Shown piece by piece: positions 837 through 56,244 of a stretch of DNA of 64,000 nt. A model generated the notes under the pieces. It ran no database searches. It was not told the DNA's origin and saw only the letters and a program-made list of their open reading frames with translations. Made by a program: the position numbers and the translations under genes. Numbering within the stretch: the first letter of the stretch is position 1; the number at the start of each line of letters is the position of its first letter. The stretch is from a virus (Duplodnaviria > Heunggongvirae > Uroviricota > Caudoviricetes). The stretch spans positions 114,756 through 178,755 of IMG/VR virus record IMGVR_UViG_3300032030_000012. One strand, 5' to 3'.

Positions 837-2468
837 TTACATCATACCTGGTAGCGGACCTGAAAGTTGTAAAACATTTTGGTCTTTCTCAGGCTCGTCA
901 ACTATTAAACCTCCCATTGTAATAACTGTTGATGCTATTGATGTTGCATTTAAAATTCCATATCTATCTACTTTAGCTGCGTTTATAACTCCAGTTTCTA
1001 CTAGATTTTCATATTCTCCAGTTAAAGCATTAAATCCTAATTGTTTATTATAACAATTTGCTACTGTCATAGGACCATCAAATCCAGCATTTTCTGCTAT
1101 TTGTCTTGTTACAGATTCTAATGAATTATATACTATTCTTTCACCTAAAGTTCCTTCTCTTTCTGGAGCATTGATAACAGCTGATAAGAAACTATAACCT
1201 CCACCTGGAACTATACCTTCCTCCATAGCAGCTTTAACAGAATTAATAGCATCTTCAATTCTTAATTTTTTATCTTTTATTTCAATTTCAGAATTTCCAC
1301 CAACTTGAATAACAGAAATTCCAGAAATTAAATTAGATATTCTTCTTTTATATTGCTCTCTATCAGATTCTTCAGGTATGTTTTCCATTATACCTGTAAT
1401 TTCTTCTACTCTAACTTCTCTCTCATCTTTTAAATCAATTCCAGTTGAACTTGCATCTTTAAATTTTAAAACAGTATCATCAGGAGTAATTATAGCTTCT
1501 TCTACCTCTCCTAACATAGATATGTCAAAATCTCTAAAGGTTCTTCCAATATCTCTTCCCATTAAAGTAGCTCCAGTAGCAATACAAATATCTTCTATAA
1601 GATTTTCTCTTAATTCTCCAAATCCAGGTAATCCTATTATTGAAACATTTAAAGGAGCTCCTTTAGCTTTATTTACTAAAATCATGTTTAAAGGCTCAAA
1701 ATCAATATCATTACATATGATTAACAATTTTAATCCTTCTTTAACAACTGTATCTAAAATAGGTAATATATCTGTAACACTATCTATTTTATCTTTAGTT
1801 ATTAATACTTTTGCATCTACAATTTCTGATTTCAAATTAATTCTATCATTTAATAAATAATTACTTAAAGTACCATTAGCTAATTTCATACCTTGAATAT
1901 TATCTAAATGATCTTTTCCTGTTTTACTATCTTCTACAATAACAGATCCAAATTCTCCAGCATTTGCAAAAGCATCTGCTATTAATTTTCCTGTCTCTTC
2001 TGAGCCTGAAGAAATGGTTGCTACTCTTTTTATAGCTTCATTATCTTTAACAGGTATTGCAATTGATTTCAAATAATCACTTATTTCTTCACTAGCTTTA
2101 ATCATGTCTTTTTGTATTTGAACAACATTAACATCTTTATGTTCTTCTTTATATTCATCAAAATATTTATGAATCATTTCTTGAGCTAATATAGTAGTTG
2201 TAGTTGTTCCATCTCCTGCTACTAAATTTGTTTTATTAGCTGCTTGTATAATAAGCTGTGCTCCGGCATCTTCTGCATTATCTTTTAAATGAATAGATTT
2301 AGCAATTGTAACACCATCGTTTGTTATAATAGGAGCTGAAACAGCTTCTCTTATTAAAACATTTCTACCTTTTGGTCCAACTGTAGTTTTAACAATATTT
2401 GCTACTGTATCAATACCTTTGACTACTAAATCTTTGGCCTCATTATCATATTTAATTATTTTATTCAT
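837..2468 (-). CDS. groEL: GroEL chaperonin (Hsp60)
   Basis: 543 aa with GroEL hallmarks: VGPKGRNV, AGDGTTTTTILAQ, C-terminal GMM. Confidence 0.95.
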   Translation of the reverse strand: MNKIIKYDNEAKDLVVKGIDTVANIVKTTVGPKGRNVLIREAVSAPIITNDGVTIAKSIHLKDNAEDAGAQLIIQAANKTNLVAGDGTTTTTILAQEMIHKYFDEYKEEHKDVNVVQIQKDMIKASEEISDYLKSIAIPVKDNEAIKRVATISSGSEETGKLIADAFANAGEFGSVIVEDSKTGKDHLDNIQGMKLANGTLSNYLLNDRINLKSEIVDAKVLITKDKIDSVTDILPILDTVVKEGLKLLIICNDIDFEPLNMILVNKAKGAPLNVSIIGLPGFGELRENLIEDICIATGATLMGRDIGRTFRDFDISMLGEVEEAIITPDDTVLKFKDASSTGIDLKDEREVRVEEITGIMENIPEESDREQYKRRISNLISGISVIQVGGNSEIEIKDKKLRIEDAINSVKAAMEEGIVPGGGYSFLSAVINAPEREGTLGERIVYNSLESVTRQIAENAGFDGPMTVANCYNKQLGFNALTGEYENLVETGVINAAKVDRYGILNATSIASTVITMGGLIVDEPEKDQNVLQLSGPLPGMM

Positions 2469-2787
2469 TTATTTTACCTCCAACTTCACTATCATATATC
2501 TTATAAAGTTCAGTCTGAATATACTCTCTAAATTCCTTATTTGATGGATGCGCTATATCAGAATATTCAAAAGTTTCACTATAACTATCTCCATTAGATG
2601 TATATTTTTTCACTTTTTTATTTGGAAAACTAATTATTCTTCTATCTTCAAGTTGTACTAATCTAATATCATGTACAATAAAACAATCATTAAATTGTAT
2701 ACTTGCTATTCCTAATAAACTAGATTCAGGATTATTGTTTTTCTTTATTCTTATACTTGTTATTTTCATTTCATTCATGTTAGTCAT
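2461..2787 (-). CDS. spoVG: SpoVG-like protein
   Basis: 108 aa; core IQFNDCFIVHDIRLV...DIAHPSNKEFREYIQ matches SpoVG (VHDIRV...DIAHPIN) conservation. Confidence 0.75.
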   Translation of the reverse strand: MTNMNEMKITSIRIKKNNNPESSLLGIASIQFNDCFIVHDIRLVQLEDRRIISFPNKKVKKYTSNGDSYSETFEYSDIAHPSNKEFREYIQTELYKIYDSEVGGKINE

Positions 2788-3091
2788 TGTCTCCTTCTAT
2801 AATTAATAATATCATTGATTCTGATAATATTGTATAATCTTTATTACCATCATTATAGTTATCTCCCTGCATTTTTGAAAAAACTATTTTATCTCCAACC
2901 TTTACTTTTAAAGGCACTATTTCACCATTACTTAATAATCTTCCTTCACCAACTGCTACGACGGTTCCTACCATTGTTGAATTATTTGATAAACTCATAT
3001 TTTTAGTATATGATAATCCTGATGATGAAGTGATTTCTTGTTTATCATTCAACTCTACCACTATTTTTTCGTATAAAGGCCTCAAGTTCAT
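2780..3091 (-). CDS. groES: GroES co-chaperonin (Hsp10)
   Basis: 103 aa; MNLRPLYEKIVV...VGEGRLLSNGEIVPLKVKVGDKIVF matches GroES pattern and mobile loop. Confidence 0.85.
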   Translation of the reverse strand: MNLRPLYEKIVVELNDKQEITSSSGLSYTKNMSLSNNSTMVGTVVAVGEGRLLSNGEIVPLKVKVGDKIVFSKMQGDNYNDGNKDYTILSESMILLIIEGDND

Positions 3092-4651: not shown

Positions 4652-5161
4652 TTAATTTCCAGTAGAACCAAATCCACCAGCTCTTTCAGCTGTTATTTCT
4701 TCTTCATTAGTTACAGTATAGTATTTCTCGAATATTCCTTGACCTAATTTATCTCCTGCTTCGATAACAGTATCTTCATCTGTAAAATTATAAAACATAA
4801 ATCCAATTTCTCCGTCATTATCTAAATTTCCATAATAATCAGCATCTACTATACCAACACCATTAGCTAAAAATATTCCTTTCTTTTTAGGATTAGAAGA
4901 TCTATTATATAATTTTAAAGCCATATCGCTAGGAAATTGAGCTTTAATTCCTGTTTTAATTAATTTTAAACTATGTGCTGGTATTACTGTTTCTAAAGGA
5001 TTATAAAAATCATATCCAGCAGAAAATTTAGTACTTCTTTCAGGTAATCTTCTATAAGGACCTCCTTCACTAGCTTCTCTTAACAATCCTGTAAACTCAA
5101 ATTTAATTGGTGTAGGTTTAATATAAACATCACTTGTTGGACCTTCACAATTATCATACAT
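4652..5161 (-). CDS. dut: dUTP diphosphatase (trimeric dUTPase)
   Basis: Motifs AGYDF, RSS, GVGIVDADYYG, C-terminal RAGGFGSTG. Confidence 0.85.
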   Translation of the reverse strand: MYDNCEGPTSDVYIKPTPIKFEFTGLLREASEGGPYRRLPERSTKFSAGYDFYNPLETVIPAHSLKLIKTGIKAQFPSDMALKLYNRSSNPKKKGIFLANGVGIVDADYYGNLDNDGEIGFMFYNFTDEDTVIEAGDKLGQGIFEKYYTVTNEEEITAERAGGFGSTGN

Positions 5162-5640: not shown

Positions 5641-7593
5641 CTAATAAGATTTAACTCTACTTAATCCATTTTTATCTTTAATAACAGTAATAACAGAATC
5701 ACAACCAATAGGAATTTCTTTATGAGATACCATATAAATACTTTCTAATGTTTCTAACTCATTATTAATTAAATCTATTACTTTAGTTTCTGCTTTACTA
5801 TCACAATATCCTAAAATCTCATCTAATATTATCATATTACAATTCATATTACCAATCATTCCAGCTAATGATTTTTGAGCTAATAATAATGCAATATTAA
5901 CTCTTGTTTTTTCTCCTCCTGATAATGATTCATATGTAGCATTTCCTAATTTAATATCTAACTTTGTATCATCTTCAGAAATAGAAATAACATCTCCTTC
6001 ATTACTAAATAATTGATTTGAATATTCACTTAGAACCTTATTTAAATATTTTAAGCTATTTTTTAAAAGATAAGTTCTAAACTCTTTAGTTATTAATTGA
6101 AGCATATGTTTTATAGAATTAATTGTATTATCACATTCGGTTAATTCTAGTTGTTTATTATTATATAAGTCATCTATATTTAATAATTGTTTATCTATAT
6201 CTTCAATCATTTTTTCAAATTCTTCTTTACTAGCAACTTCAGTCTTTAGAATTTGTTCTTTTTTACTTTGTAAAATATTTATTTCATGTTGAATACTCTC
6301 TTTTTTATTAGTTTCTAATTTTACATTATTCATTAATATTTTTCTTTGATTTTCTTCATTTTCTATATTTTTATTTCTATTTTCTACATTTTTATTTATT
6401 TCTTTTGCTTTATTTTCAATTTCATCTTTTTTAGCCTGGATATCTTTTAATTGTTTTTCATACTCATTAATATTAGAATTACAATCATTAATAATATTAT
6501 TTAAATTATCTATTTCACTATTTTTCTCTTTTATAGTACTTTGCAAATGTTCATCATTAAAATTATCATATTTTCGACCACATGTTGGACATGTATCAGA
6601 ATTTTTTATCTTATCAATCTCTTTATTAATTTTTTCTATTTCTTCTTCTTTTAAATGTATTAATAATTTATCTTTATTAATATCAGCTTCTATTTTTGAC
6701 AATTGATTATTAACATCTAAAAGTTGTTTATCTACTTCTGTTTTTGCATTTAAATCATCTTGACTTTCTTTTCTCAAATCTTCTATTTGTTTTTCTTTTT
6801 CAGACACAGCTTGATTTGCCTCTTCAATTAATATATCTTGATTTGATAATTCTTGTTGTTTACCTTCTATATCCAGTTCAATTTGCTTTAAATCTCCTAA
6901 AGCTTTTAATCTTTCAATTTCTTCATCTATAGCTTTAATTTTTTCATTTAATTGAGATTTCTGATTTATTAAAGCAGATTTTTTTCCTTCCATTTGATTT
7001 ATATCATTTACAATATCTACTCGATCTGCTTCATATTTTATCTGCTGCTCTTTTACTTTTTCTTTAAAATTATTTATTGTATTATCTGTATTTGTTAATA
7101 CTTCTAGTCTTTCTCTTCTAGCTGTTGGTTGTAATGATGCTAAATTTGTTACTGCATTCTGAGATAAGAAAATCGTATCTAAAAATATACTCTTTGATAT
7201 ACCTAAAAGATTTAATATTAGTTTATTAGTATCGGTTTTATTTCTTGCAGATATATCTATATTATCTTTATATAATAATACTGAAGATTTACCATTTTTA
7301 CCTTCCCTATAAATTGTATATTTCACACCATCTATTTCAAGTTCTAATTTTAATTTATATCCATTACCTATAATTCTATTTTCTACATCTTTTTCACCAG
7401 AACTTGTTTCTTCAAATAATGAGTATATTATACCTTCAAATATTGAAGATTTTCCTGAACCGTTAGATGTAGCATTATCTTCATATTCATTAATACCTTT
7501 TACAATGACTGTTCCTTGATTATTTAAAATGATCTGTGCTTTATCGATAGATCTAAAACTCTCTAATTCAATTGATAAAAATTTTAAATTCAT
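5641..7593 (-). CDS. sbcC: SbcC/Rad50-like recombination ATPase (T4 gp46-like)
   Basis: Walker A GSGKSS, long coiled coil with CPTCG zinc hook, signature LSGGEKTRVNIALLLA, Walker B MIILDE. Confidence 0.85.
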   Translation of the reverse strand: MNLKFLSIELESFRSIDKAQIILNNQGTVIVKGINEYEDNATSNGSGKSSIFEGIIYSLFEETSSGEKDVENRIIGNGYKLKLELEIDGVKYTIYREGKNGKSSVLLYKDNIDISARNKTDTNKLILNLLGISKSIFLDTIFLSQNAVTNLASLQPTARRERLEVLTNTDNTINNFKEKVKEQQIKYEADRVDIVNDINQMEGKKSALINQKSQLNEKIKAIDEEIERLKALGDLKQIELDIEGKQQELSNQDILIEEANQAVSEKEKQIEDLRKESQDDLNAKTEVDKQLLDVNNQLSKIEADINKDKLLIHLKEEEIEKINKEIDKIKNSDTCPTCGRKYDNFNDEHLQSTIKEKNSEIDNLNNIINDCNSNINEYEKQLKDIQAKKDEIENKAKEINKNVENRNKNIENEENQRKILMNNVKLETNKKESIQHEINILQSKKEQILKTEVASKEEFEKMIEDIDKQLLNIDDLYNNKQLELTECDNTINSIKHMLQLITKEFRTYLLKNSLKYLNKVLSEYSNQLFSNEGDVISISEDDTKLDIKLGNATYESLSGGEKTRVNIALLLAQKSLAGMIGNMNCNMIILDEILGYCDSKAETKVIDLINNELETLESIYMVSHKEIPIGCDSVITVIKDKNGLSRVKSY

Positions 7594-7988
7594 TTATTGT
7601 ACTCCTTTTCAGTATATACTCTTTTATGATTATCTGCTAAATAATCTTCAGCATTCTTGTATGAAATATAATCATCACTTGCTTGACATAACTTATCTTC
7701 ATCCATTTTTAATTCAATTAAAGCTAAAATACTGTAATTAGCTAAATCCATTAAAGTATCTTGAACTTTTTCATCTTGAACTAAATTATCTTTATTATTC
7801 AAAGTTAAATTTGTAACTCTATTTAGTTTATCAGATAATCTAACTAAAAAAGAAGTTAATCCAAATTTTTCATAAGTATCTGTAACAGAACTACCATAAT
7901 CTCTATTCTTTCTAATATATAAATCATGCATTTCATCTAGTAGTTGTTTATGAATAGATTCTCTTTTTTGATATTCACTTTCTGTCAT
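7590..7988 (-). CDS. possible MazG-like/DUF1599 all-alpha NTP-pyrophosphohydrolase-like protein
   Basis: Motifs RKNRDYG...KFG...DKLNR...DLANY; assignment made from memory. Confidence 0.35.
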   Translation of the reverse strand: MTESEYQKRESIHKQLLDEMHDLYIRKNRDYGSSVTDTYEKFGLTSFLVRLSDKLNRVTNLTLNNKDNLVQDEKVQDTLMDLANYSILALIELKMDEDKLCQASDDYISYKNAEDYLADNHKRVYTEKEYNK

Positions 7989-7989
7989 A

Positions 7990-9051
7990 TTAATTCACCC
8001 CTTCTAATACTTTATCATAATAAGCTCTAGGTAATTTTAAATCTGTTATATCTAAAAAATCTTTAAATGATTGTTTTATATCTATATTTGATTGTAAATT
8101 TAATAATGATTCTGAATTATCATCTAATTTTTCTTCTTTAGAAACTTTAACACTTAATCTATTTGAAATAATATACTCATTATTATCAGTTAAAAATTGT
8201 TTAACAGCTTCTTTTAGTTCAAATGGACAAGTAATATGTAATATGTATTTATAACTTTTATTGAGTTTATTCAAGAAATTTTCTAATTCAGATATATTAG
8301 ATTCAATATTAAATTTTCTAAATAAAGGACAAATAGTAGGTTTAAATGTTTTAAGATCTAATGTTTCAGTATCAAAAATATAACATTGTGGAACCGATTC
8401 TTCATCATCACTAAAACTATGAGTTGATATAGAACCTACATTTATTACATTTCCAGATATACTAGATTTATGAATATGACCATTAAAAACAAGTTTATAT
8501 TTATCTTTTAATATATTAGGATCAATTCCTTCAGGTAAAGCAAAATTACCTCTAATAATACTTCCTTGAATATCTTGATGAGAGAATAAAAAATCTCCTT
8601 CAGGAAATTCTAATATATCTTTATGATTACAATATGGTAAAAATGCTAATTTAATATTATCTTGTACATTAGTAAATAATTTAGGATCTACAGTACAAGC
8701 TTCTGATATAACTGTAATATTATTTATATTACTTAAAATCTTAATAGCATTAAATTCTTGATTTATCATTTCATGATTTCCTACTAATACTAAATGAGGA
8801 ATATTAAACATTCTAAAACATTTAAAAAATTCAGATGCAACATCTATATCATAAGAAGTAATAGTATGTTGATCAAATGTATCTCCTAAATTTAATATCA
8901 AATCAGGTTTTTCTTGATCAATAATGTTTTCTAAATATTTACCTGTTTCTAATATCATTTTCTGTCTATATGTATATTTATCATCATTTCCTATAGGCAT
9001 AATAGAACTTGTTCTACTAATATGTAAATCACTATATATAAAAATCTTCAT
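7990..9051 (-). CDS. sbcD: SbcD/Mre11-like nuclease (calcineurin-like phosphoesterase, T4 gp47-like)
   Basis: IYSDLH...NLGDTFD...LVGNHE...GHIH motifs. Confidence 0.85.
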   Translation of the reverse strand: MKIFIYSDLHISRTSSIMPIGNDDKYTYRQKMILETGKYLENIIDQEKPDLILNLGDTFDQHTITSYDIDVASEFFKCFRMFNIPHLVLVGNHEMINQEFNAIKILSNINNITVISEACTVDPKLFTNVQDNIKLAFLPYCNHKDILEFPEGDFLFSHQDIQGSIIRGNFALPEGIDPNILKDKYKLVFNGHIHKSSISGNVINVGSISTHSFSDDEESVPQCYIFDTETLDLKTFKPTICPLFRKFNIESNISELENFLNKLNKSYKYILHITCPFELKEAVKQFLTDNNEYIISNRLSVKVSKEEKLDDNSESLLNLQSNIDIKQSFKDFLDITDLKLPRAYYDKVLEGVN

Positions 9052-9084
9052 GAATATATTCTACCTCCAATTATTATAACAACT

Positions 9085-9124
9085 TTTGAGTAAAAGAATG
9101 ACAGGGTTAGTACAACCCTGTCAT
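9085..9124 (-). terminator. rho-independent terminator after prs
   Basis: 9-bp stem atgacaggg/ccctgtcat followed by a T-run on the minus strand. Confidence 0.55.
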
Positions 9125-9167
9125 ATTGAAAGATCTGTCGATTAGTTAGCTAGTTACTTGTTGAAAA

Positions 9168-10109
9168 TTACTTGTCGTACAAAAAGAGATTCCCCAGTGG
9201 GTAGCCTTCATTTACTCGCTTGATAGCATCAGCAAACAAAGGAGCGATAGACAGTACTTCAATCTTTGGTTCCTGTTGATAAAAAGGTACAGTGTTTGTT
9301 ACAACGATCTTCTCAGCAGCTGATTCTCTAAGACGTTCTACAGCCTTATCAGCAAAGATAGCATGAGTAGCTCCAGCATAAACAGCTTTAGCTCCTTTTG
9401 CACTGCAAATATTAATAGCTTCTACCAAAGTACCACCTGTACTAATCTCATCATCAAAGATTAAACAAGTTCTTCCTTTGATATCTCCTACAATATCTAC
9501 AGCTTTCGCACTATCACTATTGTCTTCACGTTCCTTATCGATCATAGCAATTGGACAACCTAAAAGCTTTTTATACTTATGAGCTTTTTTAGTTGAACCC
9601 GCATCAGTTGCTACTACAGTGATATCTTCAAGATGAAGTGATTTGAAATAATCAGCTAACATGTAAGTTGCTGTTAAAACATCACACCCAATATCAAAGT
9701 ATCCCTGAATAGCAGGATTATGAAGATCGCAAGTCATAATACGATCTGCTCCAGAAGCTTCGATCAGTTTAGCCATTAACTTTGCAGTTATAGGTACTCT
9801 AGGCTGATCTTTTTTATCAGAGCGAGAATACATGTAGTAAGGTAATACAACGGTAATGCGACGTGCGGAAGCTCTTTTTGCAGCTTCTACTGCAATTAGA
9901 AGTTCCATGACCCTTTCGTTGACAGGCGGTTCAGTTGTTTGAATGATGAAAATGTCTTGCTCCCTAACACTCTCGAGAAACTGAACGAAATTGTTATCGT
10001 TCTTGAACTTGAATGAGTTCATCTGTCCTAACGGAAGATCGAGACACTTACATACCTCCTTAGCAAACGGTACAGCACTGTTACAAGCGAAAATCTTTAT
10101 GTCTTTCAT
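9168..10109 (-). CDS. prs: ribose-phosphate pyrophosphokinase (PRPP synthetase)
   Basis: 313 aa full-length Prs (DLHNPAIQGYFD, VVATDAGSTKKA, DDEISTGGTL); locally GC-richer than neighbours. Confidence 0.9.
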   Translation of the reverse strand: MKDIKIFACNSAVPFAKEVCKCLDLPLGQMNSFKFKNDNNFVQFLESVREQDIFIIQTTEPPVNERVMELLIAVEAAKRASARRITVVLPYYMYSRSDKKDQPRVPITAKLMAKLIEASGADRIMTCDLHNPAIQGYFDIGCDVLTATYMLADYFKSLHLEDITVVATDAGSTKKAHKYKKLLGCPIAMIDKEREDNSDSAKAVDIVGDIKGRTCLIFDDEISTGGTLVEAINICSAKGAKAVYAGATHAIFADKAVERLRESAAEKIVVTNTVPFYQQEPKIEVLSIAPLFADAIKRVNEGYPLGNLFLYDK

Positions 10110-10197
10110 TTCTGTAGACCTCCTTCTAATATTTATAACAAATTAAAAAAGAAATTGATATATCAATCAATTTCTTTTCTTTTATATTTTATCTTTT

Positions 10198-11118
10198 CTA
10201 ATTATTTTCATTAGTATTTGTATCTTCAGTATTAATTTCATTATCTTGATTTTGTTTATTTTCTTGATCTGCTATATAATTTTTAATATCTCTAAATGAT
10301 TTGAATTCTTGATGTGTAAATCCATCTCCCAAATCTATATCATAATAGGTATAATCAGGAGTAAATGATCTATAAAGAGTTTTACCTCCTTTTGGTGAAT
10401 ATCCATCTGTTGTAGCTTTATCTGAAGCCCACATTCCATTTGCACATCCTGAAGCACCTACTTTAAAACAACAATATTTATCACAACCTATTGACATTGC
10501 ATCTTGTAAAAATTTTCTCATTTGATTTAATCTTGTTGGAGAGATATATTCAGGCCACCAATCAAATATTGATAATTGATTATAAACATTAGAAATTTTC
10601 CATTTAGCTCCTGGATAATTACCATTGCTTAACATATCATCTATATTTCTTATTACATTAGCTGGTACTGTATTTGAATAATCTACTGATTCAAATTTAT
10701 TGGTTTTATTTATTAATTTATTTTCATCTAGATATTCATCATCATTATATTCTTCATCGTCTTCAAAATCTGTATTAAAATCTTCTTTAGAATATCCACA
10801 ATCATAAGTTTGTCCAGGGCCTTCTATAGATATTAATATAGTATTACCCATTCCAGGATCTTCAGCTTCTTCATCAAATATTTCTTTTAGTCTATTTATT
10901 TTAGTTAAATCATCTTGATCAGGTAATTCTTCATAAATATCATTTAATTCATCTTCATCACCATTTAATATATTTGTAAAAGCATATTCAAAAGCTTCTA
11001 TATCTAATGGGTATTCTCTTTCTTCTACTATCCAATCTTCAATTAGATCTCTTCTTGTTTGAGGTCTACGTTCTGCACAAGCAGTATTTAAAAAATATGT
11101 AAATTTATATTTAGCCAT
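10198..11118 (-). CDS. hypothetical protein (acidic)
   Basis: ORF track. Confidence 0.5.
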   Translation of the reverse strand: MAKYKFTYFLNTACAERRPQTRRDLIEDWIVEEREYPLDIEAFEYAFTNILNGDEDELNDIYEELPDQDDLTKINRLKEIFDEEAEDPGMGNTILISIEGPGQTYDCGYSKEDFNTDFEDDEEYNDDEYLDENKLINKTNKFESVDYSNTVPANVIRNIDDMLSNGNYPGAKWKISNVYNQLSIFDWWPEYISPTRLNQMRKFLQDAMSIGCDKYCCFKVGASGCANGMWASDKATTDGYSPKGGKTLYRSFTPDYTYYDIDLGDGFTHQEFKSFRDIKNYIADQENKQNQDNEINTEDTNTNENN

Positions 11119-11133: not shown

Positions 11134-11469
11134 TTATATTTCTGAAAGATAAGCATAAACAGTTTGCTTAGATCTTTCTTGTTGAGGTAATTTAATATCA
11201 AAAGTCACTTCAAATTCTATATCATCTAAGTTTCTTGCTGTTTCCATTGTTTCAACAGTAGCATTATCTATATTTTCAAAATAAGTTTCTTGTTCAAGAT
11301 TTTTCTTTAAATTATCTAAATTCTCATAAGTCTCTTTGAAAGAATCATAATTACTTTCATATCCAGAACCTACGAATTTAACTCCATATTGTTTTTCACA
11401 ACCTAACAATTCATATAAATTATTTAACTCATTTACCTTCTGAAATAATGTTTCTAAGACTATTACCAT
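11134..11469 (-). CDS. hypothetical protein
   Basis: ORF track; TAATATTTTAC motif upstream. Confidence 0.5.
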   Translation of the reverse strand: MVIVLETLFQKVNELNNLYELLGCEKQYGVKFVGSGYESNYDSFKETYENLDNLKKNLEQETYFENIDNATVETMETARNLDDIEFEVTFDIKLPQQERSKQTVYAYLSEI

Positions 11470-13423: not shown

Positions 13424-13649
13424 AATATTTACAACTCCTTTATTTTATACTATTTATAACAACTCATATTATTAAATTTGCTACTACTATTATATTACAG
13501 TTTTGAAAAAATGGAACGAGATTTATTAAAATAAATTTAGGAAAATTTTTGGATCTGAGCAATCCATTGAAATAAAAAGCTTCGAATACAGTTTTTTAAG
13601 AATTTTTGGACAAATAGTCAGTATATTTATAAGGCAAAACTCTATATAC

Positions 13650-13770
13650 TCTATATAATGATATAGTCATATACTTATATAATGATATCACTCAATTCTC
13701 ATTTCTGTTTCAGATTCAGATCTCTTTATCAAATTTCAGATTCAATTATCTGTTTCAGATCTGTTCTGGA
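13650..13770. repeat. iteron-like short direct repeats (tatataatgatat x2; tgtttcagat x3)
   Basis: Seen directly in the ORF-free region. Confidence 0.5.
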
Positions 13771-13794
13771 AATGATTTTTGACAGATTTGTTAA

Positions 13795-14400
13795 ACACCA
13801 CCAGACAACCGATTTATAACACGGACAGCATCCACTTCGTGTGACGCTCGTGTTTTGGAAGCAGAAGTCACCTTACCCTCCTCTCTAAAATCAATAAAAA
13901 ATTGACGTTAGAGATGAGAGTAAAGTGCCCGAAAAAATAGTGAGAACCTGGCTGGGGTGCTCACTAGAACAATTTTCATAACGCGTGATTACGCGCTTCG
14001 TATAGCTTTCGGCCACATGCTAGATACTACTTCCTCACCAAGACTCGCTTATATGAGGGTCCTATAAAGATTTTACAAGTAAGTCGGTTACTGTGATTAT
14101 ATATCTTACTTGTAGTAATTTGTATTTCGTTTCTAGTTACCTGCTATCATCTATTTACTTGATTCATACTGTGTTCAAATATATTGGAAATTACATTTGA
14201 ACAACTGAGGTAATTAATATTTGCTTATGAACTTTCTATATATGCATCGCACGAGGACGGGATTAAATTTGTTCGCAGCTCGCGAGATGACTCTTTAACA
14301 GCCGACAAAACAGCACAACCGAACCGCGCCTGGTACTTGGAGATCGAACTTAGACAAGTTGAAATACCTTTCCATCGGTCAAATTCAATTATTATTATTT
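13795..14400. other. GC-elevated ORF-free core with many local hairpins (candidate structured RNA or acquired fragment; class unknown)
   Basis: No ORF of 60 aa or more in six frames; GC visibly higher than flanks; stems such as gtgag...ctcac and gcgtgattacgc. Confidence 0.3.
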
Positions 14401-14944
14401 ATATAAAAATAGTATCGCAACTTCTATATAAACTTTAATAATATCTTTTATATCTCCCTTAACGTTGTGTTGCCAGTTATTTATTCAATCTAAATAGATT
14501 AAGTAGATTTCCTATCAACTACTCCTCAATATGCTTTCCCATATATCTTGATTATGCTGTATGAAATTATATTAATATTTCATTCCCTATAATCTTGTTT
14601 TGAATCAATTATAGTTTAAATAGAACTACTTTAAAAATATAGTTTATCTGATGTGTTATACAAACCGTTACAAGAGTTCCTTTTTATAAATGTATACCTC
14701 GACTCTTTTGCACGTTAATTTTTTACTTTATAGATTTTATCCCAGGGCAAGGGACACCAGATTTCTGTGATCAGCCTAAGAGGCATTTCCGTTACGAGTT
14801 ATTCTAAAGGAGGGATTAGCTTAAATATCAAAACTTATTTATCTAATTTTCATATGACGCTCTAGAACCTACTTTTAATGTTATATAAAACTATCTATAT
14901 CTGGTCATAGATAGAATTTTAATTTACTAGATATTTATAACATC

Positions 14945-14993
14945 TTTTTAAAACAAATTAATAATCATGTGAAATTTTTATCACATGATTATT
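14945..14993 (-). terminator. rho-independent terminator after the 5'-3' exonuclease gene
   Basis: 13-bp perfect stem aataatcatgtga/tcacatgattatt with 8-nt loop and downstream T-run on minus. Confidence 0.6.
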
Positions 14994-15009
14994 ATAACAT
15001 CTTAATTTT

Positions 15010-19013: not shown

Positions 19014-19040
19014 AAAAGAGATGAATTAATTCATCTCTTT
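19014..19040 (-). terminator. perfect 13-bp palindrome at the tdk stop (possible terminator or regulator site)
   Basis: aaagagatgaatt|aattcatctcttt. Confidence 0.35.
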
Positions 19041-19565
19041 ATAACATTTATGACATAGGGCTAGATATTCATCATTGCCAACTAATATATCGTTATTTTT
19101 ATTATTTTTACAATAAGTATATATAGCAGGATTACCACACTTATCACATTTAGCTTCTAGATATTCTACTTCATCAGCTAAAGCTAATAATTGAGGCATA
19201 TTACCAAAAGGCTTTCTTTCAGATGTTAAATTTAACCCTGCTATATAGAATTTTTTACCATCATCAATAAAACTATTTAATATTATATGTAAATCTTGTC
19301 CTTCTAAAAATTGAAATTCATCTATGAAAAATATATCTACAAGATCTCTGTAAGGTAATAGATCATAAATAGTTTTTATATTCACGCAAACTATTTTATC
19401 TCCATCACGACTAACAACTTCTGTTTCAGAAAATCTATTATCTATATAAGGTTTAAACATCATGCATTTATATTTTGTAGTTTCTTTTAAATCTTCATAT
19501 ATAGATATTAATCTAGATGTTTTACCACTTTTCATAGGTCCTGTAAAAACGTTTATTAATCCCAT
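19026..19565 (-). CDS. tdk: thymidine kinase
   Basis: P-loop GPMKSGKTS, FIDEFQF, C-terminal CDKCG...CHKC zinc motif. Confidence 0.9.
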   Translation of the reverse strand: MGLINVFTGPMKSGKTSRLISIYEDLKETTKYKCMMFKPYIDNRFSETEVVSRDGDKIVCVNIKTIYDLLPYRDLVDIFFIDEFQFLEGQDLHIILNSFIDDGKKFYIAGLNLTSERKPFGNMPQLLALADEVEYLEAKCDKCGNPAIYTYCKNNKNNDILVGNDEYLALCHKCYKEMN

Positions 19566-23973: not shown

Positions 23974-24741
23974 TCATTTCTTAAATCTATGTAATAACAT
24001 ATTTATAAATCTTAATATTTTTTGCCATATAGTTTGATAAGTATCTATTGTATTTTCTTTTGTTGAAATAGCCCAAGCTGAATCAATAGGATAATCATAA
24101 GGAAGTATAGCTTGACCTTTATCTCCCCAATATTTACCCCAGCTATTTTGAATTATGTAACCATAGGGATTATAACCACAAATTATAATCATATGATATC
24201 CTTTTAATTCACCTTCAGGTTCTTTAATAATATAATTTAAATCATAATCTAAATCATTATAAACTGGAATTGAAATAGGTACTGGAGTATTTTGAAGAAG
24301 ACACTTTTTTATTTCTTCTTCAGTATAAATTCTAGCATATGATTCTATTTTATATTTTTCAGCAATTGGTTTTAATTTATCTATATTCTCATCAACAATG
24401 TCTTTAATTTCTTTCATTTCTTTATTGTGATCAAAATTATCTCTAGGAACATCTCCTATCTTTTGTAAAGTTTTTAATGCTTCTCTAGGATACATTCCTT
24501 GTTCTTGATTATAAGTTATAGGTCTATATCCATATATAAATCCTGTAGACATTTTTTCATTATTAAATTTTTCTAAAAATGTAGCTAAAGAGTGAGCTAC
24601 ACAAGAATTAACAATACCTTGATCTTTAACCTCAGATATTGTTAATTCATATTTCTCAGGAAATTTTGGAGCAGAAACTATTTTCGATTTAAACTTATAA
24701 TCCCTTTTATCTGGTATCTCTTTCTTACTTCCGTAATACAT
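23974..24741 (-). CDS. papain-family (C1A-like) cysteine peptidase
   Basis: QGIVNSCVAHS (Gln/Cys), GYHMIIICGYN (His), NSWGKYWGDKGQAIL (Asn/Trp): the full catalytic signature of papain-like proteases. Confidence 0.7.
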   Translation of the reverse strand: MYYGSKKEIPDKRDYKFKSKIVSAPKFPEKYELTISEVKDQGIVNSCVAHSLATFLEKFNNEKMSTGFIYGYRPITYNQEQGMYPREALKTLQKIGDVPRDNFDHNKEMKEIKDIVDENIDKLKPIAEKYKIESYARIYTEEEIKKCLLQNTPVPISIPVYNDLDYDLNYIIKEPEGELKGYHMIIICGYNPYGYIIQNSWGKYWGDKGQAILPYDYPIDSAWAISTKENTIDTYQTIWQKILRFINMLLHRFKK

Positions 24742-51043: not shown

Positions 51044-51787
51044 TTAATTTCCTTTCTGTTTATTATTAAATTTAATTACATCTTTTATTAGTTCTATATT
51101 ATATTGATTTGCTATTGCAGGTACATCTTTATTTAAACAATGACTATCCCAGAAAGGAGTATCTTCATATACAAAAGTATGTGAAGGATTTACTCTAGGA
51201 TCTAAAACAAATAATTCTCTTACTTCAGAATAATTAATATCTTCTTCCTTACATATATTATAGAAAGCTTGACAGAAACTTACTTTTGTAGCTAAAAAAG
51301 AATTCTCCATGAATTTTACAGTTTCAGCTACTTTAGATTCTACGGATCTAAATATATGTCTTCCATCATAACAAGGTAATAATATTTGAATTATATCATT
51401 ACAATCTTTTTTATTACCTCCTAAAATTGTAAAATCAAAATAATAATTATTACAATGTTTAGTTCCTCCATAATATTCTGGACTAAAAACAATTCTTTTA
51501 TTTGTTTCTTTAATCAATTTATCAACAGTACCTACAGGACAAGTTGATTTAATACAATAAATTTCACAGTTATAATCATTTATACAATTTTTAACTTCTG
51601 TTATATCTAATACATTATCTTTTAATGGAGTATCAACACATATAAATCCTAAATCATATCTAATATCTTTTATAGTATTTACTTCTGGTTTATATTTATC
51701 TACAATATCAGGATTTAAATCTTTTAATTCATTTGCTAAATTATGACCAACTACTCCATATCCAATTATTAATACATTTTTCACCAA
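51044..51787 (-). CDS. UDP-glucose/GDP-mannose dehydrogenase-family protein, truncated (NAD-binding plus central domain, no C-terminal UDP-binding domain)
   Basis: IGYGVVGHN Rossmann motif, FICVDTP, ENSFLATKVSFCQAFYNICK; TTG start. Confidence 0.6.
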   Translation of the reverse strand: MVKNVLIIGYGVVGHNLANELKDLNPDIVDKYKPEVNTIKDIRYDLGFICVDTPLKDNVLDITEVKNCINDYNCEIYCIKSTCPVGTVDKLIKETNKRIVFSPEYYGGTKHCNNYYFDFTILGGNKKDCNDIIQILLPCYDGRHIFRSVESKVAETVKFMENSFLATKVSFCQAFYNICKEEDINYSEVRELFVLDPRVNPSHTFVYEDTPFWDSHCLNKDVPAIANQYNIELIKDVIKFNNKQKGN

Positions 51788-51821
51788 TAATATCTACCTC
51801 TTTCGTTAAAGTATTATGTAT

Positions 51822-51832
51822 TAATATTTTAC
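51822..51832 (-). promoter_or_regulatory. conserved promoter-like motif TAATATTTTAC
   Basis: Exact copy 35 nt upstream of the TTG start at 51787. Confidence 0.45.
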
Positions 51833-51839
51833 TTATTTT

Positions 51840-52214
51840 TTAACATTGCTTAATTATAGTATTGGTATATCTTCTTAATAATTCAGTCATATTTTTTCTA
51901 CCTACAGGATTAGATGTATGAATTCTAAATTCATTACAAGATATATTATTTTCTATAATATATTTACAAATATCATATCCAGTCTTTTCTTCCCCTAAAT
52001 CATGATCTAAACATATTATATCATATTTAAATCTATGTAATTCATGAATAGCTTCATTATAAGATCTAGCTATAAATGTATGATATTCTCCTATATAATT
52101 ATTAGGAATTCCTCTTAAATCATCTATCCATAATAAATATTTTTTAGGTTCTTTCTTTTTAGCTATATGATCTTCATACCATTTCATAGCAAAATAATTA
52201 TCAAAATTACTCAT
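51840..52214 (-). CDS. stand-alone receiver (REC/CheY-like) fold protein, hypothetical
   Basis: LLWIDD...ICLDHDLG...IHTSNP spacing resembles the receiver-domain acidic pocket. Confidence 0.3.
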   Translation of the reverse strand: MSNFDNYFAMKWYEDHIAKKKEPKKYLLWIDDLRGIPNNYIGEYHTFIARSYNEAIHELHRFKYDIICLDHDLGEEKTGYDICKYIIENNISCNEFRIHTSNPVGRKNMTELLRRYTNTIIKQC

Positions 52215-52776
52215 CTTGAATTATATCTCCTTTTTCACGGTCTCCAAATTTCCATTCAGCATTTACATATCCGTTTTCTATTTTTACATCTATACCTATT
52301 ATATTAAATAATATAGCACTATCTGATTCTAAAAATTCTTTTATTTGTTTATATACTTTATTCTGTTTTTGCATCAATAAACAATCTTGAACTTGCATAT
52401 CATCAGCTACTTCCATTATAGTTTTACCATATTCTATAGCTTCTTTTTTATTTGAAAAAATATAATCTTCTTTTACATCACAGAATTTATAAGGTTCATC
52501 TAATTTATTATATGAAATTCTATATGTTTTTACTCTTCTAGAACTATATGTAAAAATTCGTCCTTGTAATACTTCTAACTTATCTAAAGATCTATTATAA
52601 TGTAAAAACCATATAGCATCTCGGATTTTATATTTGGTTTTAGACTCACATTCATTACATAACCAACCTGCTACATAATTGCTCATATCAGAATATTCAT
52701 CTTCTTCTCTACCACAATAAACACATTTCTTATCAAAATAACCATAACATTTACCTAATTTTAATGGATTACTCAT
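52207..52776 (-). CDS. hypothetical protein with zinc ribbon (CVYCG...CNEC)
   Basis: ORF track. Confidence 0.5.
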   Translation of the reverse strand: MSNPLKLGKCYGYFDKKCVYCGREEDEYSDMSNYVAGWLCNECESKTKYKIRDAIWFLHYNRSLDKLEVLQGRIFTYSSRRVKTYRISYNKLDEPYKFCDVKEDYIFSNKKEAIEYGKTIMEVADDMQVQDCLLMQKQNKVYKQIKEFLESDSAILFNIIGIDVKIENGYVNAEWKFGDREKGDIIQDE

Positions 52777-52785
52777 TTTTATTAC

Positions 52786-53085
52786 CTATCCTATTCCAAA
52801 TCCTACTTGATTTCTATATTGTTCAGGTCTTCCTTCCATTCTAATATATTCTTCATTTAAGTCATCCCATTTATACCAAACAGGATCTTGATCATATTGA
52901 TATAGTCCTTCTTCAACATTTTCTATAACAGCATAGTCATAACAAGTTTCCCAAATATCACAAGCATTATCTAATACAGCTTCTTCTGCTTTTTCAAATG
53001 TTGAATAATATCCCACACATCTCATATCTCCATCTTTAGAATCAACTGTTGTAATAAAATACATATTACTTACCTCCATACCCAC
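52786..53085 (-). CDS. hypothetical protein
   Basis: ORF track. Confidence 0.5.
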   Translation of the reverse strand: MGMEVSNMYFITTVDSKDGDMRCVGYYSTFEKAEEAVLDNACDIWETCYDYAVIENVEEGLYQYDQDPVWYKWDDLNEEYIRMEGRPEQYRNQVGFGIG

Positions 53086-53464
53086 ATAAATCTAAAAATC
53101 CAATAAGATCTAAATCTTTATATTCTTTTTTCTCTTTCCAAAACCATTGCATAAAATCATCATGATTTATTAATTTTTCAGAATCACATAAACCTTTAAA
53201 ACATAAACAAACATATGTATTAAGATGCTGAAAAATTCTACCTATGTAGTCAGGTATATTAGATTCAGATAAAAAAGATGACATATTCTTTTCAAATAAT
53301 AAAGTATCTTTTCTGATATCTTCTATTATGTCAATAATTGCTAATCCTTCTTCTATAAAATCATCTCTTGTTAACATATCTATATCTACCCCCCCGTATA
53401 AATAAAATGTAAGAGGTTTTAATTTTATTTTCAACGCAGGTTCCTCTACTTCATACTGACGCAT
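53066..53464 (-). CDS. hypothetical protein
   Basis: ORF track. Confidence 0.5.
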   Translation of the reverse strand: MRQYEVEEPALKIKLKPLTFYLYGGVDIDMLTRDDFIEEGLAIIDIIEDIRKDTLLFEKNMSSFLSESNIPDYIGRIFQHLNTYVCLCFKGLCDSEKLINHDDFMQWFWKEKKEYKDLDLIGFLDLCGYGGK

Positions 53465-53485
53465 ATCTGGGAGCTACCCAGCCTC

Positions 53486-53559
53486 TGGCTCCTCAGATAA
53501 GATTCGAACTTATAATAAACGGTTAACAGCCGCACGTGATACCCTTTCACCACTGAGGA
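53486..53559 (-). tRNA. tRNA-Asn (GTT)
   Basis: Manual cloverleaf: acceptor tcctcag/ctgagga, D gtga/tcac, anticodon loop cTGTTaa, T-arm ataag-ttcgaat-cttat, encoded CCA. Confidence 0.8.
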
Positions 53560-53562
53560 ATA

Positions 53563-53994
53563 TTAAATATTTATAATAGCTTCAAATGAATTTATTTCAT
53601 AATAAATAACTCTTTTAGATTGATTATTTTTAGTAGGCGTATATCTAATTACTACTTCATTTTTATTATAATCATTATTTTTATATAAAAATAATTTATC
53701 TTCAGTTATATTATAAAAAGCATAATAATCAATTTCATCTTTATAAAAGAGTTTTTTATATCCTTTACCGTTATTATTTTTAGTATTAGAAAAAGAATAT
53801 AAAGGAAAACTACAAGTACCATTCTTTTTTAAAGAAGCAGATTTTACTTGAATTTTATTAAGCTTATTATTAAATTCAGCTATTATATCAGCTCTCTCAT
53901 TATCTCCAAAAGGAATATAAACAGGAACATTTAAAGATATAAATTTACATAAAGTTTTTATTTCTCCTAAATTTCCTTTATTTTTAGAATTCAT
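53563..53994 (-). CDS. possible PD-(D/E)xK-type nuclease (homing-endonuclease-like position inside tRNA island)
   Basis: GNLGE ... GDNERADIIAE ... IQVKS spacing; weak. Confidence 0.3.
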   Translation of the reverse strand: MNSKNKGNLGEIKTLCKFISLNVPVYIPFGDNERADIIAEFNNKLNKIQVKSASLKKNGTCSFPLYSFSNTKNNNGKGYKKLFYKDEIDYYAFYNITEDKLFLYKNNDYNKNEVVIRYTPTKNNQSKRVIYYEINSFEAIINI

Positions 53995-54149
53995 TTAATC
54001 TCCCTTTCAAAAATATTGAATGAGTATATTTTAGTAGCAAGTTTTTTACTTCTACACGGCACCTAATACTCTCTTATGCTCAGTCCATATTATTCTTCTT
54101 ATCCCTTATGAACTAGGGATATGTAAGCTTACAAGTCCTTTATAGGACT

Positions 54150-54223
54150 TGGCTCGGGAAACTAGACTCGAACTAATAATACAGGAGTCAAAGTCCTGTG
54201 TGATACCATTTCACCATTCCCGA
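54150..54223 (-). tRNA. tRNA-Gln (TTG)
   Basis: Acceptor tcgggaa/ttcccga, D gtga/tcac, anticodon stem cagga/tcctg, loop cTTTGac, CCA encoded. Confidence 0.8.
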
Positions 54224-54331
54224 ATATAAGTATGAGTAGGCATTGACTCGTACATGCGTCCACATACTATCGCACTTAATAGGTTGTTTACCGACCTACT
54301 CATATAAAACAGAGATGCTATAGTCATCTCT

Positions 54332-54405
54332 TGGAGGTACAGATTGGAATCGAACCAATGATCGAGCTTTTGCAGAGCTTTGTCTTGCCACTTGACTACT
54401 GTACC
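54332..54405 (-). tRNA. tRNA-Cys (GCA)
   Basis: Acceptor ggtacag/ctgtacc, anticodon loop cTGCAaa, T-arm attgg-ttcgatt-ccaat, CCA encoded. Confidence 0.8.
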
Positions 54406-54438
54406 ATATATCAGAGAGTATCTCTACTCTCTATTTGA

Positions 54439-55926
54439 CTATAATTCTTTTGGTTTTGTTAAATCTTCTTTTTTATCTTCAACAGATTTTGCTCCTAGTT
54501 TACCTACAGCATATCCTGCTACTATTGATTTTAAATCTACTCCTAAACTATCTTGAGCTACTTTTAATATCTTATCTATTTTTTGAGTTCCACTTTCTAT
54601 TAATTGAGTTGATTGATCTCCATACATTGTAATTGAATCTACATTTGATAATGGAGTAGATACTTCTTTAGCTATATCGGGAAGTTTATTTATAATCATT
54701 TCTACTACTGAAGCTTGTTGCATTTTAGCTTGTGCTTCTGCTTTCTTTTCGATACCTTTTGCTTCTGCAATACCTTTTGCTTCAATACCAGCTGCTTCAG
54801 CTTCTAATTTTGCTTTTATACCATCAGCCTCTGCTACTGCTTTAGCTCTTATAGCTTGAGCTTCTAATTCTGCTGCTTCTTTATTAGCTTTTGCTATTTC
54901 TATTTTAGCTTGAGCTTCTTGTTTTGCTTTTTCTAGATCAGCTTGAGCATTTTGTATTGTAACTTGTTTTTGAGCTTCTGCATTAATTTCTGCTTTATAT
55001 TTATCTGCATCAGCTTGTTTTCTAACTTCTGCATCTAATTGTTTTTCTCTTAAAGCTACTTCTTTTTCTTTTAATTCAGTTTCTTTTTCTGTTTTAGCTA
55101 TTTCAGCAAGAACTGTGTTTTCATTTATAAGCTTTTGTCTTTCAGCTTTTTGTATTTCATAAATAGTATCAGCTTCTGCTTTTTTCTTATCTTGTTCAAT
55201 TTGATATTCATATTGTTTTAAAGCTAACTCTTTATTTTGTTTTGCTATTTCAGCTTCTGATGCTGCTTTAGCTTCATTACCTTCTCTAGCTGCAGCTGCT
55301 TGTGCTACTTGAACATCTCTTTCAGCTTGGGCTTTTGCTATTTTAGCATCTTTTTGAATCTTTGATAAATTATCAATACCTAAATCATTAATAGCATTAT
55401 TCTCATCTGTACAAGATTGTACATTTAAGTTTACTATTTCTAATCCTATTGCTTTAATATCGTCTTTAGCATTTTCTTGAATTTTAGTTGAAAATAATTG
55501 TTTGTTATTAACTAAATCTTTAAGATTCATTTGACCAATTATTTCTCTCATGTTTCCTTCAAGAACTTGTTGAACATTTCTTGCAATATACTCAGGATTT
55601 TGATTTAGGAAATGTCTTGCAGCTACCTGTATTAATTCAGGGTTGTTAGGTATTCTAACATTTGCTACAGCATCTACATCTACATTAATAAAATCAGATG
55701 TAGGAACTCTTGATGTCTTAACATCAATTTGAATTAACTCTAAAGTTAATTTATCCACTCTCTCAAAGAATGGGATTCTTAATGTTGCTTTACCTATTAT
55801 TACTCTAGGTTCTTTTTTAAGACCTGATATTAAATATACCATATCTGGTGGACATTTAACATAGCTCATGAAAATTAAACCTATCAGCAATATTACAGCA
55901 ACAGCGATAATGATTGCTAATACCAT
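54439..55926 (-). CDS. SPFH/band-7 flotillin-like membrane protein
   Basis: N-terminal TM, SPFH core, long Ala/Glu/Lys-rich coiled coil (flotillin/YqiK architecture). Confidence 0.8.
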   Translation of the reverse strand: MVLAIIIAVAVILLIGLIFMSYVKCPPDMVYLISGLKKEPRVIIGKATLRIPFFERVDKLTLELIQIDVKTSRVPTSDFINVDVDAVANVRIPNNPELIQVAARHFLNQNPEYIARNVQQVLEGNMREIIGQMNLKDLVNNKQLFSTKIQENAKDDIKAIGLEIVNLNVQSCTDENNAINDLGIDNLSKIQKDAKIAKAQAERDVQVAQAAAAREGNEAKAASEAEIAKQNKELALKQYEYQIEQDKKKAEADTIYEIQKAERQKLINENTVLAEIAKTEKETELKEKEVALREKQLDAEVRKQADADKYKAEINAEAQKQVTIQNAQADLEKAKQEAQAKIEIAKANKEAAELEAQAIRAKAVAEADGIKAKLEAEAAGIEAKGIAEAKGIEKKAEAQAKMQQASVVEMIINKLPDIAKEVSTPLSNVDSITMYGDQSTQLIESGTQKIDKILKVAQDSLGVDLKSIVAGYAVGKLGAKSVEDKKEDLTKPKEL

Positions 55927-56102
55927 TTATCTCTACCTCCAAATAAATAATATTTGTCTGTCTCTCCAGACTGTCACGTTGCTTCTTAATGTACTTCTTG
56001 CTCAACACAACGTTTGAACGAGACAAAGTTGCCGTGTACACCTGACCTGTAGAAATATCTGAGTTTCACTACAGAGAGGACTCAAACGCTCATACCTCAT
56101 AC

Positions 56103-56176
56103 TGGCAGGAGTGGTAAGAATTGAACTCACATTAACGGTTTTGGAGACCGTAGTCCTACCATTGAACGACACTCCT
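56103..56176 (-). tRNA. tRNA-Trp (CCA)
   Basis: Acceptor aggagtg/cactcct, anticodon stem acggt/accgt, loop cTCCAaa, T-arm gtgag-ttcaatt-ctcac, CCA encoded. Confidence 0.8.
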
Positions 56177-56244
56177 ATTTAATTTCGTCAAAACACAAGA
56201 TAGTTTCAAATGTAATGACGAAATATTAAGACTATTTTTCTTCC

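Follow-up and report, generated by a model that had tools for sequence, protein, structure and literature searches.

The subject of this report is prs, a gene for ribose-phosphate diphosphokinase (phosphoribosyl pyrophosphate, or PRPP, synthetase) that lies in 64,000 nucleotides (nt) of a virus of the class Caudoviricetes (IMG/VR record IMGVR_UViG_3300032030_000012, positions 114,756 to 178,755). This entire 64-kb stretch is hereafter called the window, and its own phage or gene copy is denoted W in comparisons; relatives labelled L001, L008, L118 and so forth are loci from other assemblies. The gene is flanked by genes for a UvrD-like helicase, a Mre11-like phosphoesterase and a Rad50-like ATPase, in a recombination block that also has a 5'-3' exonuclease, and a dUTPase and a thymidine kinase are encoded nearby, as a preliminary description of the sequence had pointed out. 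Taken together, the observations are best explained by an old, functional prs derived from Clostridia, kept under constraint and bearing a long-standing excess of guanine and cytosine (GC), a reading to which a probability of about 0.72 is assigned.

The prs gene, its product and its signals

The predicted product matches the Pfam domains Pribosyltran_N (PF13793; 151.8 bits), Pribosyl_synth (PF14572; 81 bits) and Pribosyltran, and its scores exceed the curated cut-offs of the NCBIfam models NF002320 (348.8 against 297) and TIGR01251 (347.6 against 113). Solved bacterial ribose-phosphate pyrophosphokinases align with it over the full length, at 296 bits for 7pn0/5t3o and 260 bits for 1dkr; the first two are presumably the Prs of Thermus thermophilus, and the last that of Bacillus subtilis. 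The protein contains the motifs FKNDN (residue 35), YSRSDKK (94), DLH (128), TDAG (168), DKER (191) and DDEISTGGT (219). In the alignment with 7pn0 and 1dkr, three functional elements coincide, namely the conserved histidine of DLH, the flexible catalytic loop with K-x-R (DKER) and the loop DDEISTGGT, which has the pattern DDxxxT(G/A)GT and binds ribose-5-phosphate/PRPP; the roles assigned to these residues follow the literature. By its domains and binding loops, the predicted protein is a class I PRPP synthetase, and it is probably a functional, canonical enzyme that would convert ATP and ribose-5-phosphate to PRPP and AMP. Domains, cut-offs and flanking genes all agree with the preliminary identification of a complete PRPP synthetase of 313 amino acids (aa) in a block of nucleotide-metabolism and recombination genes.

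Between W and L001, the ratio of nonsynonymous to synonymous divergence (dN/dS) is 0.064 for prs, comparable to that of GroEL (0.068), and purifying selection on the gene is, by this measure, strong. At about 12 sites where conservation within the cellular sister group reaches 90% or more, the phage clade has a different residue, as in R144V, K158L, Y177H and R193E. Two regions differ from solved enzymes in the phage copies and in the cellular loci L005 (also designated P0006) and L010 alike. Specifically, residues 304-309 read PLG(N/D)LF (PLGNLF in W) or PMGDLF, as opposed to SVSxLF in 1dkr and 7pn0, and residues 35-39 read FKNDN or FANDN, as opposed to FSDGE in 1dkr. The C-terminal SVSxLF region is taken here to contribute to the allosteric site, and the region of residues 35-39 in 1dkr presumably contributes to ATP binding. 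Regulation in this prs subfamily may therefore differ.

The gene is also accompanied by a set of candidate expression signals (Table 1). The hairpin 3' of prs is followed directly by TCTTTT and is the sole terminator-like match between positions 8500 and 10700, where 0.4 are expected in shuffled sequence. Its folding energy is -16.8 kcal/mol (z = -5.8 relative to shuffles), four compensatory base pairs occur among W, L006, L001 and L008, and 95.8% of cells in the alignment are paired, compared with no more than 52% after the partners have been shifted. In L118, a hairpin of different sequence occupies the equivalent place. This structural evidence agrees with the preliminary description in giving prs a terminator of its own, at which termination is predicted.

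Upstream of the gene, W, L006 and L001 share the Shine-Dalgarno sequence AGGAGG without change; in L008, a separate AGGAGG lies closer to a later start codon, in a part where the alignment is unreliable. The promoter-like element TTGTTATAAA has a TTGTTAT core that is invariant in relatives, and motifs of this type recur 20-30 nt 5' of several minus-strand gene starts. Window-wide enrichment of the motif is weak (51 matches versus 37 ± 5 expected), and the element is best regarded as a putative promoter. The hairpin that would terminate the upstream gene orf306 is kept in L006 and L001, and an analogous hairpin lies 3' of the UvrD-like gene in L118. The gene is therewith bracketed by two terminator-like structures. 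Likewise, at the end of the prs unit, the leader of the Mre11-like gene contains the element TTGTTATAAT, around which the pattern AAGTTGTTAT.ATA..TGGAGGTAGA is near-invariant across four phages. In this arrangement, prs looks like a self-contained transcription unit, the promoter of which is a candidate.

Table 1. Positions of prs, its signals and other features of the window
Feature	Position	Strand	Remarks
prs coding sequence	9168..10109	-	313-aa class-I-type ribose-phosphate diphosphokinase (PRPP synthetase); ATG start
Intrinsic-terminator-like hairpin	9098..9124	-	3' of prs; 12 bp, 3-nt loop, T-rich tail to ~9088
Shine-Dalgarno AGGAGG	10119..10124	-	9 nt 5' of prs ATG
Promoter-like extended -10 element TTGTTATAAA	10132..10141	-	23 nt upstream of prs ATG
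Hairpin and U-run, predicted terminator of upstream orf306	10145..10180	-	-14.5 kcal/mol, z = -4.8
Promoter-like element TTGTTATAAT, then GGAGG	9073..9082	-	for Mre11-like gene; end of prs unit
Mre11-like gene	7990-9051		
DUF1599 gene	7590-7988		"nucleotide modification associated domain 1"
orf306	10198-11118		
orf111	11134-11469		
dUTPase	4652-5161		
Thymidine kinase	19026-19565		
GroEL, SpoVG, GroES cluster	837-3091		GroEL 543 aa
Stretch without ORF	13424-15009		1.59 kb, no open reading frame (ORF) >=46 aa on either strand; 30% GC
Papain-family cysteine protease domain (Peptidase_C1)	23974-24741		structural region
Dehydrogenase-like, cREC_REC and PD-(D/E)XK cluster	51044-53994		adjoins tRNA cluster
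tRNA cluster	53486 to 58715		seven tRNAs
SPFH/Band 7 (flotillin-like) protein	54439-55926		495 aa, Ala/Glu-rich, amid tRNA genes

Ancestry, age and base composition of prs

In a search of 5.8 billion proteins, the best matches to the prs product were a group of 313-aa proteins at 77-96% identity, followed by 315-aa proteins at 72% or less. Members of the first group are phage-borne wherever their flanks can be read (L006, at 96%, holds too little flank), and those of the second are cellular by gene context in both members examined, P0006 and P0010. No cellular protein among the 5.8 billion exceeded 72% identity. The 80 nearest genome-resolved homologues (58-70% identity) come without exception from uncultured, low-GC (25-33%) metagenome-assembled genomes (MAGs) of the animal gut, nearly all of them labelled Clostridia or Clostridium and three labelled as other Firmicutes (Erysipelotrichaceae, Lachnospiraceae and Eubacteriales). 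In a neighbour-joining tree, the phage copies form one clade, with a bootstrap of 60/60, that is nested among the Prs of cellular Clostridia MAGs. Because of this well-supported nesting, the phage prs is, as judged by its phylogeny, of cellular ancestry, host-derived from a low-GC gut/rumen Clostridia lineage, and the host origin proposed in the preliminary description is borne out. Within IMG/VR, neither a single-sequence nor an alignment scan found a close Prs, and a search of the same collection with the Mre11-like gene returned no relative.

The position of the gene is shared among divergent phages. In W, L001 and L008, prs lies between the UvrD-like and Mre11-like genes, with orf111 and an orf306-like gene separating it from the former, and in L118 it lies directly between the two. 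The flanking proteins of L118 are only distantly related to those of the window, with identities of 50.5% for UvrD, 67% for Mre11 and 52% for Rad50. By such proteins, three deep lineages can be recognized that are approximately equidistant (0.50-0.69 identity); two of them carry prs. In the third, represented by L093 and L094, the UvrD-like and Mre11-like genes are immediate neighbours, in that order, and the two IMG/VR contigs that gave these loci yielded no Prs relative in an alignment-based scan; this lineage either split off before prs was gained or lost the gene.

Divergence among the copies is likewise considerable. Between W and L118, third-position identity in prs is 0.435, which is below that of every flanking gene and indicates saturation, and the shared GC-ending positions number 27 versus 23.8 expected by chance, an overlap that is too weak a test to tell a decaying relic from a composition at equilibrium. 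Synonymous divergence (dS) between W and L001 is 1.06 for prs and 0.38-0.86 for flanking genes. Since prs is syntenic in lineages with 50-69% flank identity and its synonymous sites are saturated, it is not a recent arrival; relative to the radiation of this phage group, synteny and divergence place the gene at or near the base.

The base composition of prs is clearly unusual, and the earlier impression of a gene richer in GC than its flanks proves to have been an understatement. Its GC content is 38.7%, compared with 27.1% for the window, and by codon position it amounts to 0.51 (GC1), 0.363 (GC2) and 0.290 (GC3). For the 68 ORFs of the window, mean GC is 0.263 and mean GC3 is 0.104 (standard deviation 0.039), the next-highest GC3 being 0.202. 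In a 1-kb profile, the interval 9001-10000 (36.8% GC) tops the 64-kb stretch together with 37001-38000 (37.5%); at the other GC peaks (36.5-38.5 kb and 54-56.5 kb) lie either ORFs whose GC3 is unremarkable (0.085-0.10) or tRNA genes. Scored against the synonymous codon usage of the phage itself, no other gene is nearly as atypical as prs (z = -8.3). The excess peaks in codons 1-70 (GC3 0.50) and in the final 30 (0.44), and it extends to all codon classes with similar odds of enrichment: C-ending two-fold pyrimidine codons (0.35 versus a background of 0.07), G-ending two-fold purine codons (0.44 versus 0.11) and G/C-ending four-fold codons (0.15 versus 0.04). Finally, GC3 is raised in every phage copy of prs examined (0.20-0.29).

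The cellular relatives provide no ready source for this excess. The 80 nearest cellular prs genes have GC3 values of 0.08-0.25 (mean 0.139), all below that of the phage prs, and cellular prs genes are not raised in GC3 relative to their own neighbouring genes. A donor-versus-phage codon log-likelihood ratio of 0.007 was obtained for the phage prs, compared with 0.148 ± 0.088 for genuine cellular prs, and its codon usage matches that of the donor clade as poorly as that of the phage. A two-state, non-stationary maximum-likelihood model in which GC3 decays from an initially high value requires GC3 at the crown root to have been 0.62-0.95. Decay calibrated on flanking genes, in turn, needs approximately 0.3-0.46 at the split of W from L001 and 0.6-0.7 at that of W from L118. 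Decay to background is rejected under homogeneous sites and merely disfavoured under gamma-distributed rates, and it is judged implausible because the required ancestral GC3 is hard to reconcile with a donor in a clade of 25-33% GC. We conclude that the GC excess, which falls mostly on synonymous sites, is a long-standing property of the phage copies that was not inherited from any sampled donor.

As to what has produced the excess, our leading guess is a selective or mutational regime specific to this gene. A stronger proposal, which is possible but doubtful, is that a gene-specific force actively maintains the synonymous excess in a genome that otherwise sits at a GC3 of about 0.1. Under this proposal, candidate forces would include selection on the mRNA stability or translation of a single early enzyme, or the advantage of keeping the phage prs unlike the host prs in DNA or RNA, thereby avoiding recombination or cross-regulation. 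If true, the virus would be holding one captured gene at a compositional equilibrium of its own across a deep radiation.

Several other approaches to the question were abandoned. Parsimony polarisation of third positions gave 10 AT-to-GC gains versus 1 change in the opposite direction on the W branch, and a Rad50/Mre11 control displayed the same bias at equilibrium (22 versus 3). A mosaic structure or gene conversion was rejected as the source of the 70 GC-rich codons at the 5' end, as the nucleotide sequence of prs is evenly similar to its relatives over its whole length; likewise, no segment of prs was unusually close to any sampled cellular sequence. Finally, ordinary translational selection was set aside on the grounds that the excess is not specific to two-fold codons but has similar odds in all classes, that the phage structural genes, presumed to be highly expressed in part, have low GC3, and that cellular prs genes are not enriched in GC3 relative to their neighbours.

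The surrounding phage genome

The window encodes a T4-type portal, a T4 baseplate protein, a GroES-SpoVG-GroEL cluster and seven tRNAs. No nucleotide-level relative of the window was found in the INPHARED collection. Metagenomic contigs of 205-210 kb match the region at approximately 83% identity, and a 140.8-kb IMG/VR contig, 3300031760_000008, is 98% identical to it and stops approximately 700 nt before prs, the break falling inside orf306. The source is an uncultivated jumbo phage, one of a group of T4-like phages of about 200 kb and 21-28% GC that would infect uncultured gut/rumen Clostridia. In so unambiguous a viral context, and with the ancestry indicated by its phylogeny, prs is classed as a phage auxiliary metabolic gene of host origin.

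Some of the neighbouring genes vary among relatives. The region of orf306 and orf111, between the UvrD-like gene and prs, is a variable spot just upstream of prs, both ORFs being absent in L118, L093 and L094. The orf306 product is acidic and modular; its counterparts in L006 and L119 have 521-523 aa, and in L001 the gene is split. Neither orf306 nor orf111 gave a family match, and their homologues are modular and unannotated; one orf306 homologue has a weak match to an ArdA anti-restriction domain. A functional link between prs and these two ORFs was considered and dropped, given this lack of family matches and of annotated homologues. The DUF1599 gene, which lies between the Mre11-like and Rad50-like genes, is present in W, L008, L118 and L119 and absent in L001, and therefore constitutes a presence/absence polymorphism in the recombination block. 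In L118, a flavin-dependent thymidylate synthase (ThyX/Thy1; 8309-8977 of that locus) directly follows the dUTPase, and no Thy1 match was found at the corresponding place in the window.

Elsewhere in the window, the GroEL cluster is kept in L001 and L118, and its GC3 is mostly ordinary (0.08-0.20). The stretch without ORFs is set in a genome that is otherwise tightly packed. It is 97.7% conserved in the IMG/VR relative L092, and an unrelated 537-aa ORF occupies the place in L001. No Rfam match and no notable repeats were found in this stretch, an Rfam scan of the window and of the ORF-free region having returned tRNAs only; the stretch may specify a non-coding RNA or represent a decayed insertion. 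Next to the tRNA genes lies a cluster encoding a UDP-glucose/GDP-mannose dehydrogenase-like protein, a cREC_REC domain (cyclic-phosphate processing receiver) and a PD-(D/E)XK endonuclease, and a flotillin-like protein is encoded among the tRNA genes. Finally, a papain-family protease domain is encoded in the structural region, and the same family occurs near prs in the cellular locus L091.

Competing explanations and known systems

On the reading favoured here, an ancestor of the group of ~200-kb, T4-like, AT-rich phages would have captured prs from low-GC gut/rumen Clostridia. The gene would have been inserted as a unit (promoter-like element, strong ribosome-binding site, ORF and terminator) between the UvrD-like and Mre11-like genes, and presumably has been retained there ever since under strong purifying selection. 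During infection, Prs would most likely raise the PRPP pool for nucleotide salvage and de novo synthesis. A role in nucleotide supply is the simplest interpretation because a thymidine kinase and a dUTPase are also carried, and the presence of the gene suggests that these phages are limited by their supply of PRPP.

A number of observations weigh against this account in one part or another. The Prs phylogeny is distance-based only, and support for the exact cellular sister is weak (37-42/60). With rate heterogeneity, decay of the GC excess fits only marginally worse than the free model (2ΔlnL, twice the difference in log-likelihood, of 3.5-7.7), and an unsampled, GC-richer donor is a possible source of the excess. 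In related genomes at 93% nucleotide identity (L119, 3001-3941; L120; L121; at least three assemblies), prs is split into ORFs of 182 and 125 aa by a 1-nt deletion in the run ACTAAAAAAGCT (A6 to A5), equivalent to approximately 9585-9590 of the window. The split allele may be a real pseudogene, implying that prs is dispensable in some settings, or it may be a homopolymer error. Finally, no PRPP-consuming enzyme (phosphoribosyltransferase or Nampt) was found in the 64-kb window, of which the scan covered all but 26-39 kb and 43.7-50.9 kb, where the ORFs are presumed to be structural; approximately 140 kb of the genome lies outside the window.

The preliminary description had favoured a relatively recent acquisition from the current host, in which case the raised GC would be a donor composition that has not yet drifted down. 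The gene is indeed the strongest compositional outlier in the window and is cellular in ancestry, it is absent from the L093/L094 lineage, and its dS exceeds that of its flanks, as would be expected of a gene out of compositional equilibrium. Yet the same locus recurs across lineages with deeply diverged flanks, its third positions are saturated, and the best cellular identity is 72%. The use of the raised GC as a sign of recency is contradicted by the AT-richer third positions of all 80 nearest cellular prs genes. Moreover, the codon usage is unlike that of the donor clade, an ancestral GC3 of 0.6-0.95 would be required under neutral decay, and no segment is unusually similar to cellular sequence. 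Atypical composition, one mark of a recently transferred gene, is thus present, whereas donor-like composition and absence from close relatives together with a near-identical donor copy are not. Of the two observations that the preliminary description had named as speaking against its own proposal, nearest homologues that are phage-borne were found wherever flanks are readable (77-96% identity), and a composition without deviation was not. Recent acquisition is accordingly regarded as distinctly improbable. It has negligible likelihood that prs is instead a host fragment mis-assembled into a phage contig. Such an artefact would account for a segment that is richer in GC than its surroundings, and the nearly identical IMG/VR contig does end shortly before the gene. 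However, both junctions recur in independent assemblies from different samples or sources (L001-L004, L008, L118 and L119), and this replicated synteny refutes the idea; in addition, phage-type promoter-like and ribosome-binding sequences are conserved.

Two further alternatives concern function. One holds that the protein is not a PRPP synthetase but an ADP-ribose pyrophosphokinase of the Adps type, from the NARP1 pathway of NAD+ reconstitution. Adps resembles PRPS in its fold and has been assigned to the PRPS family by annotation (PMC13586617), a phage pyrophosphokinase gene beside a nicotinamide phosphoribosyltransferase gene (e.g., in Shigella phage Silverhawkium) is among the weak matches to prs, and PHROG 619 is matched at 151 bits. 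Against this, identity to that phage pyrophosphokinase is approximately 25%, compared with 58-72% to housekeeping Prs of Clostridia, the NCBIfam subfamily cut-offs are passed, and the DDEISTGGT and DKER loops match those of solved bacterial Prs. The neighbours, moreover, are a 306-aa protein without a family match and the Mre11-like nuclease, and the window yielded neither Namat nor Nampt, so that an Adps-type activity appears very improbable. The other alternative, which is compatible with an old, Clostridia-derived prs, is that a genuine Prs has its chief value in counter-defence, supplying PRPP for NAD+ salvage of the Nampt (NARP2-like) type or for nucleotide re-synthesis, that is, for rebuilding after the host has depleted NAD+, ATP or dNTPs. 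NARP2 starts from PRPP (PMC13464706), phages are known to rebuild depleted metabolites, and prs lies near the variable, acidic orf306, with its one ArdA-matching homologue. This proposal is rather unlikely, considering that the window yielded no gene for Nampt, NMNAT or another step of NAD metabolism, that Prs itself carries no defence-related signal, and that nucleotide salvage is simpler given the thymidine kinase and dUTPase.

An old, constrained prs of Clostridia origin thus remains the preferred explanation, and the auxiliary metabolic genes of phages are thereby extended by a further bacterial-type PRPP synthetase, bacterial-type prs having already been annotated in other large phages. 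The phages concerned, of ~200 kb and 21-28% GC, form an unstudied group associated with uncultured gut/rumen Clostridia. The case also serves as a caution, in that a compositional island that had been read as a recent transfer is contradicted by synteny, by synonymous saturation and by the composition of candidate donors. Finally, why one gene has kept a deviating GC3 throughout a deep radiation of phages is a small, tractable question on viral codon composition.

Among known systems, phage psbA and similar host-derived auxiliary genes of cyanophages have a patchy G+C content that has been attributed to exchange with host copies. Like these, prs is an old, host-derived metabolic gene that is compositionally distinct, with its excess concentrated in parts (codons 1-70 and the last 30). 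It differs from the psbA type in that no patch of prs is unusually near to sampled cellular prs and that the sampled cellular genes are more AT-rich. With the Adps of NARP1 (bioRxiv 10.1101/2024.02.11.579819; PMC13586617), the protein has in common phage encoding, a PRPS-like fold and annotation in the PRPS family; the adjacent Namat partner and the remodelled donor and regulatory loops of Adps do not apply to it. A gene pair of the Silverhawkium type, taken here as a NARP1 locus, is only ~25% identical to the window's Prs.

A much closer counterpart is found in the bacterial class I Prs (EC 2.7.6.1), which share with it a two-domain architecture over the full length as well as the catalytic motifs; the variants FxNDN and Y(A/S)RSDKK are common to 7pn0 and the phage Prs. 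The window's copy differs from the bacterial enzymes in being encoded by a phage and in its substitutions at positions that are conserved in cells. Finally, prs genes such as those of Microcystis phage MaAM05 and of the uncultured "megaphage" records LR756501/LR756503 likewise encode a bacterial-type Prs in a large phage genome. Their products share only ~40% identity with that of the window, and they would therefore represent independent acquisitions from other bacterial lineages.

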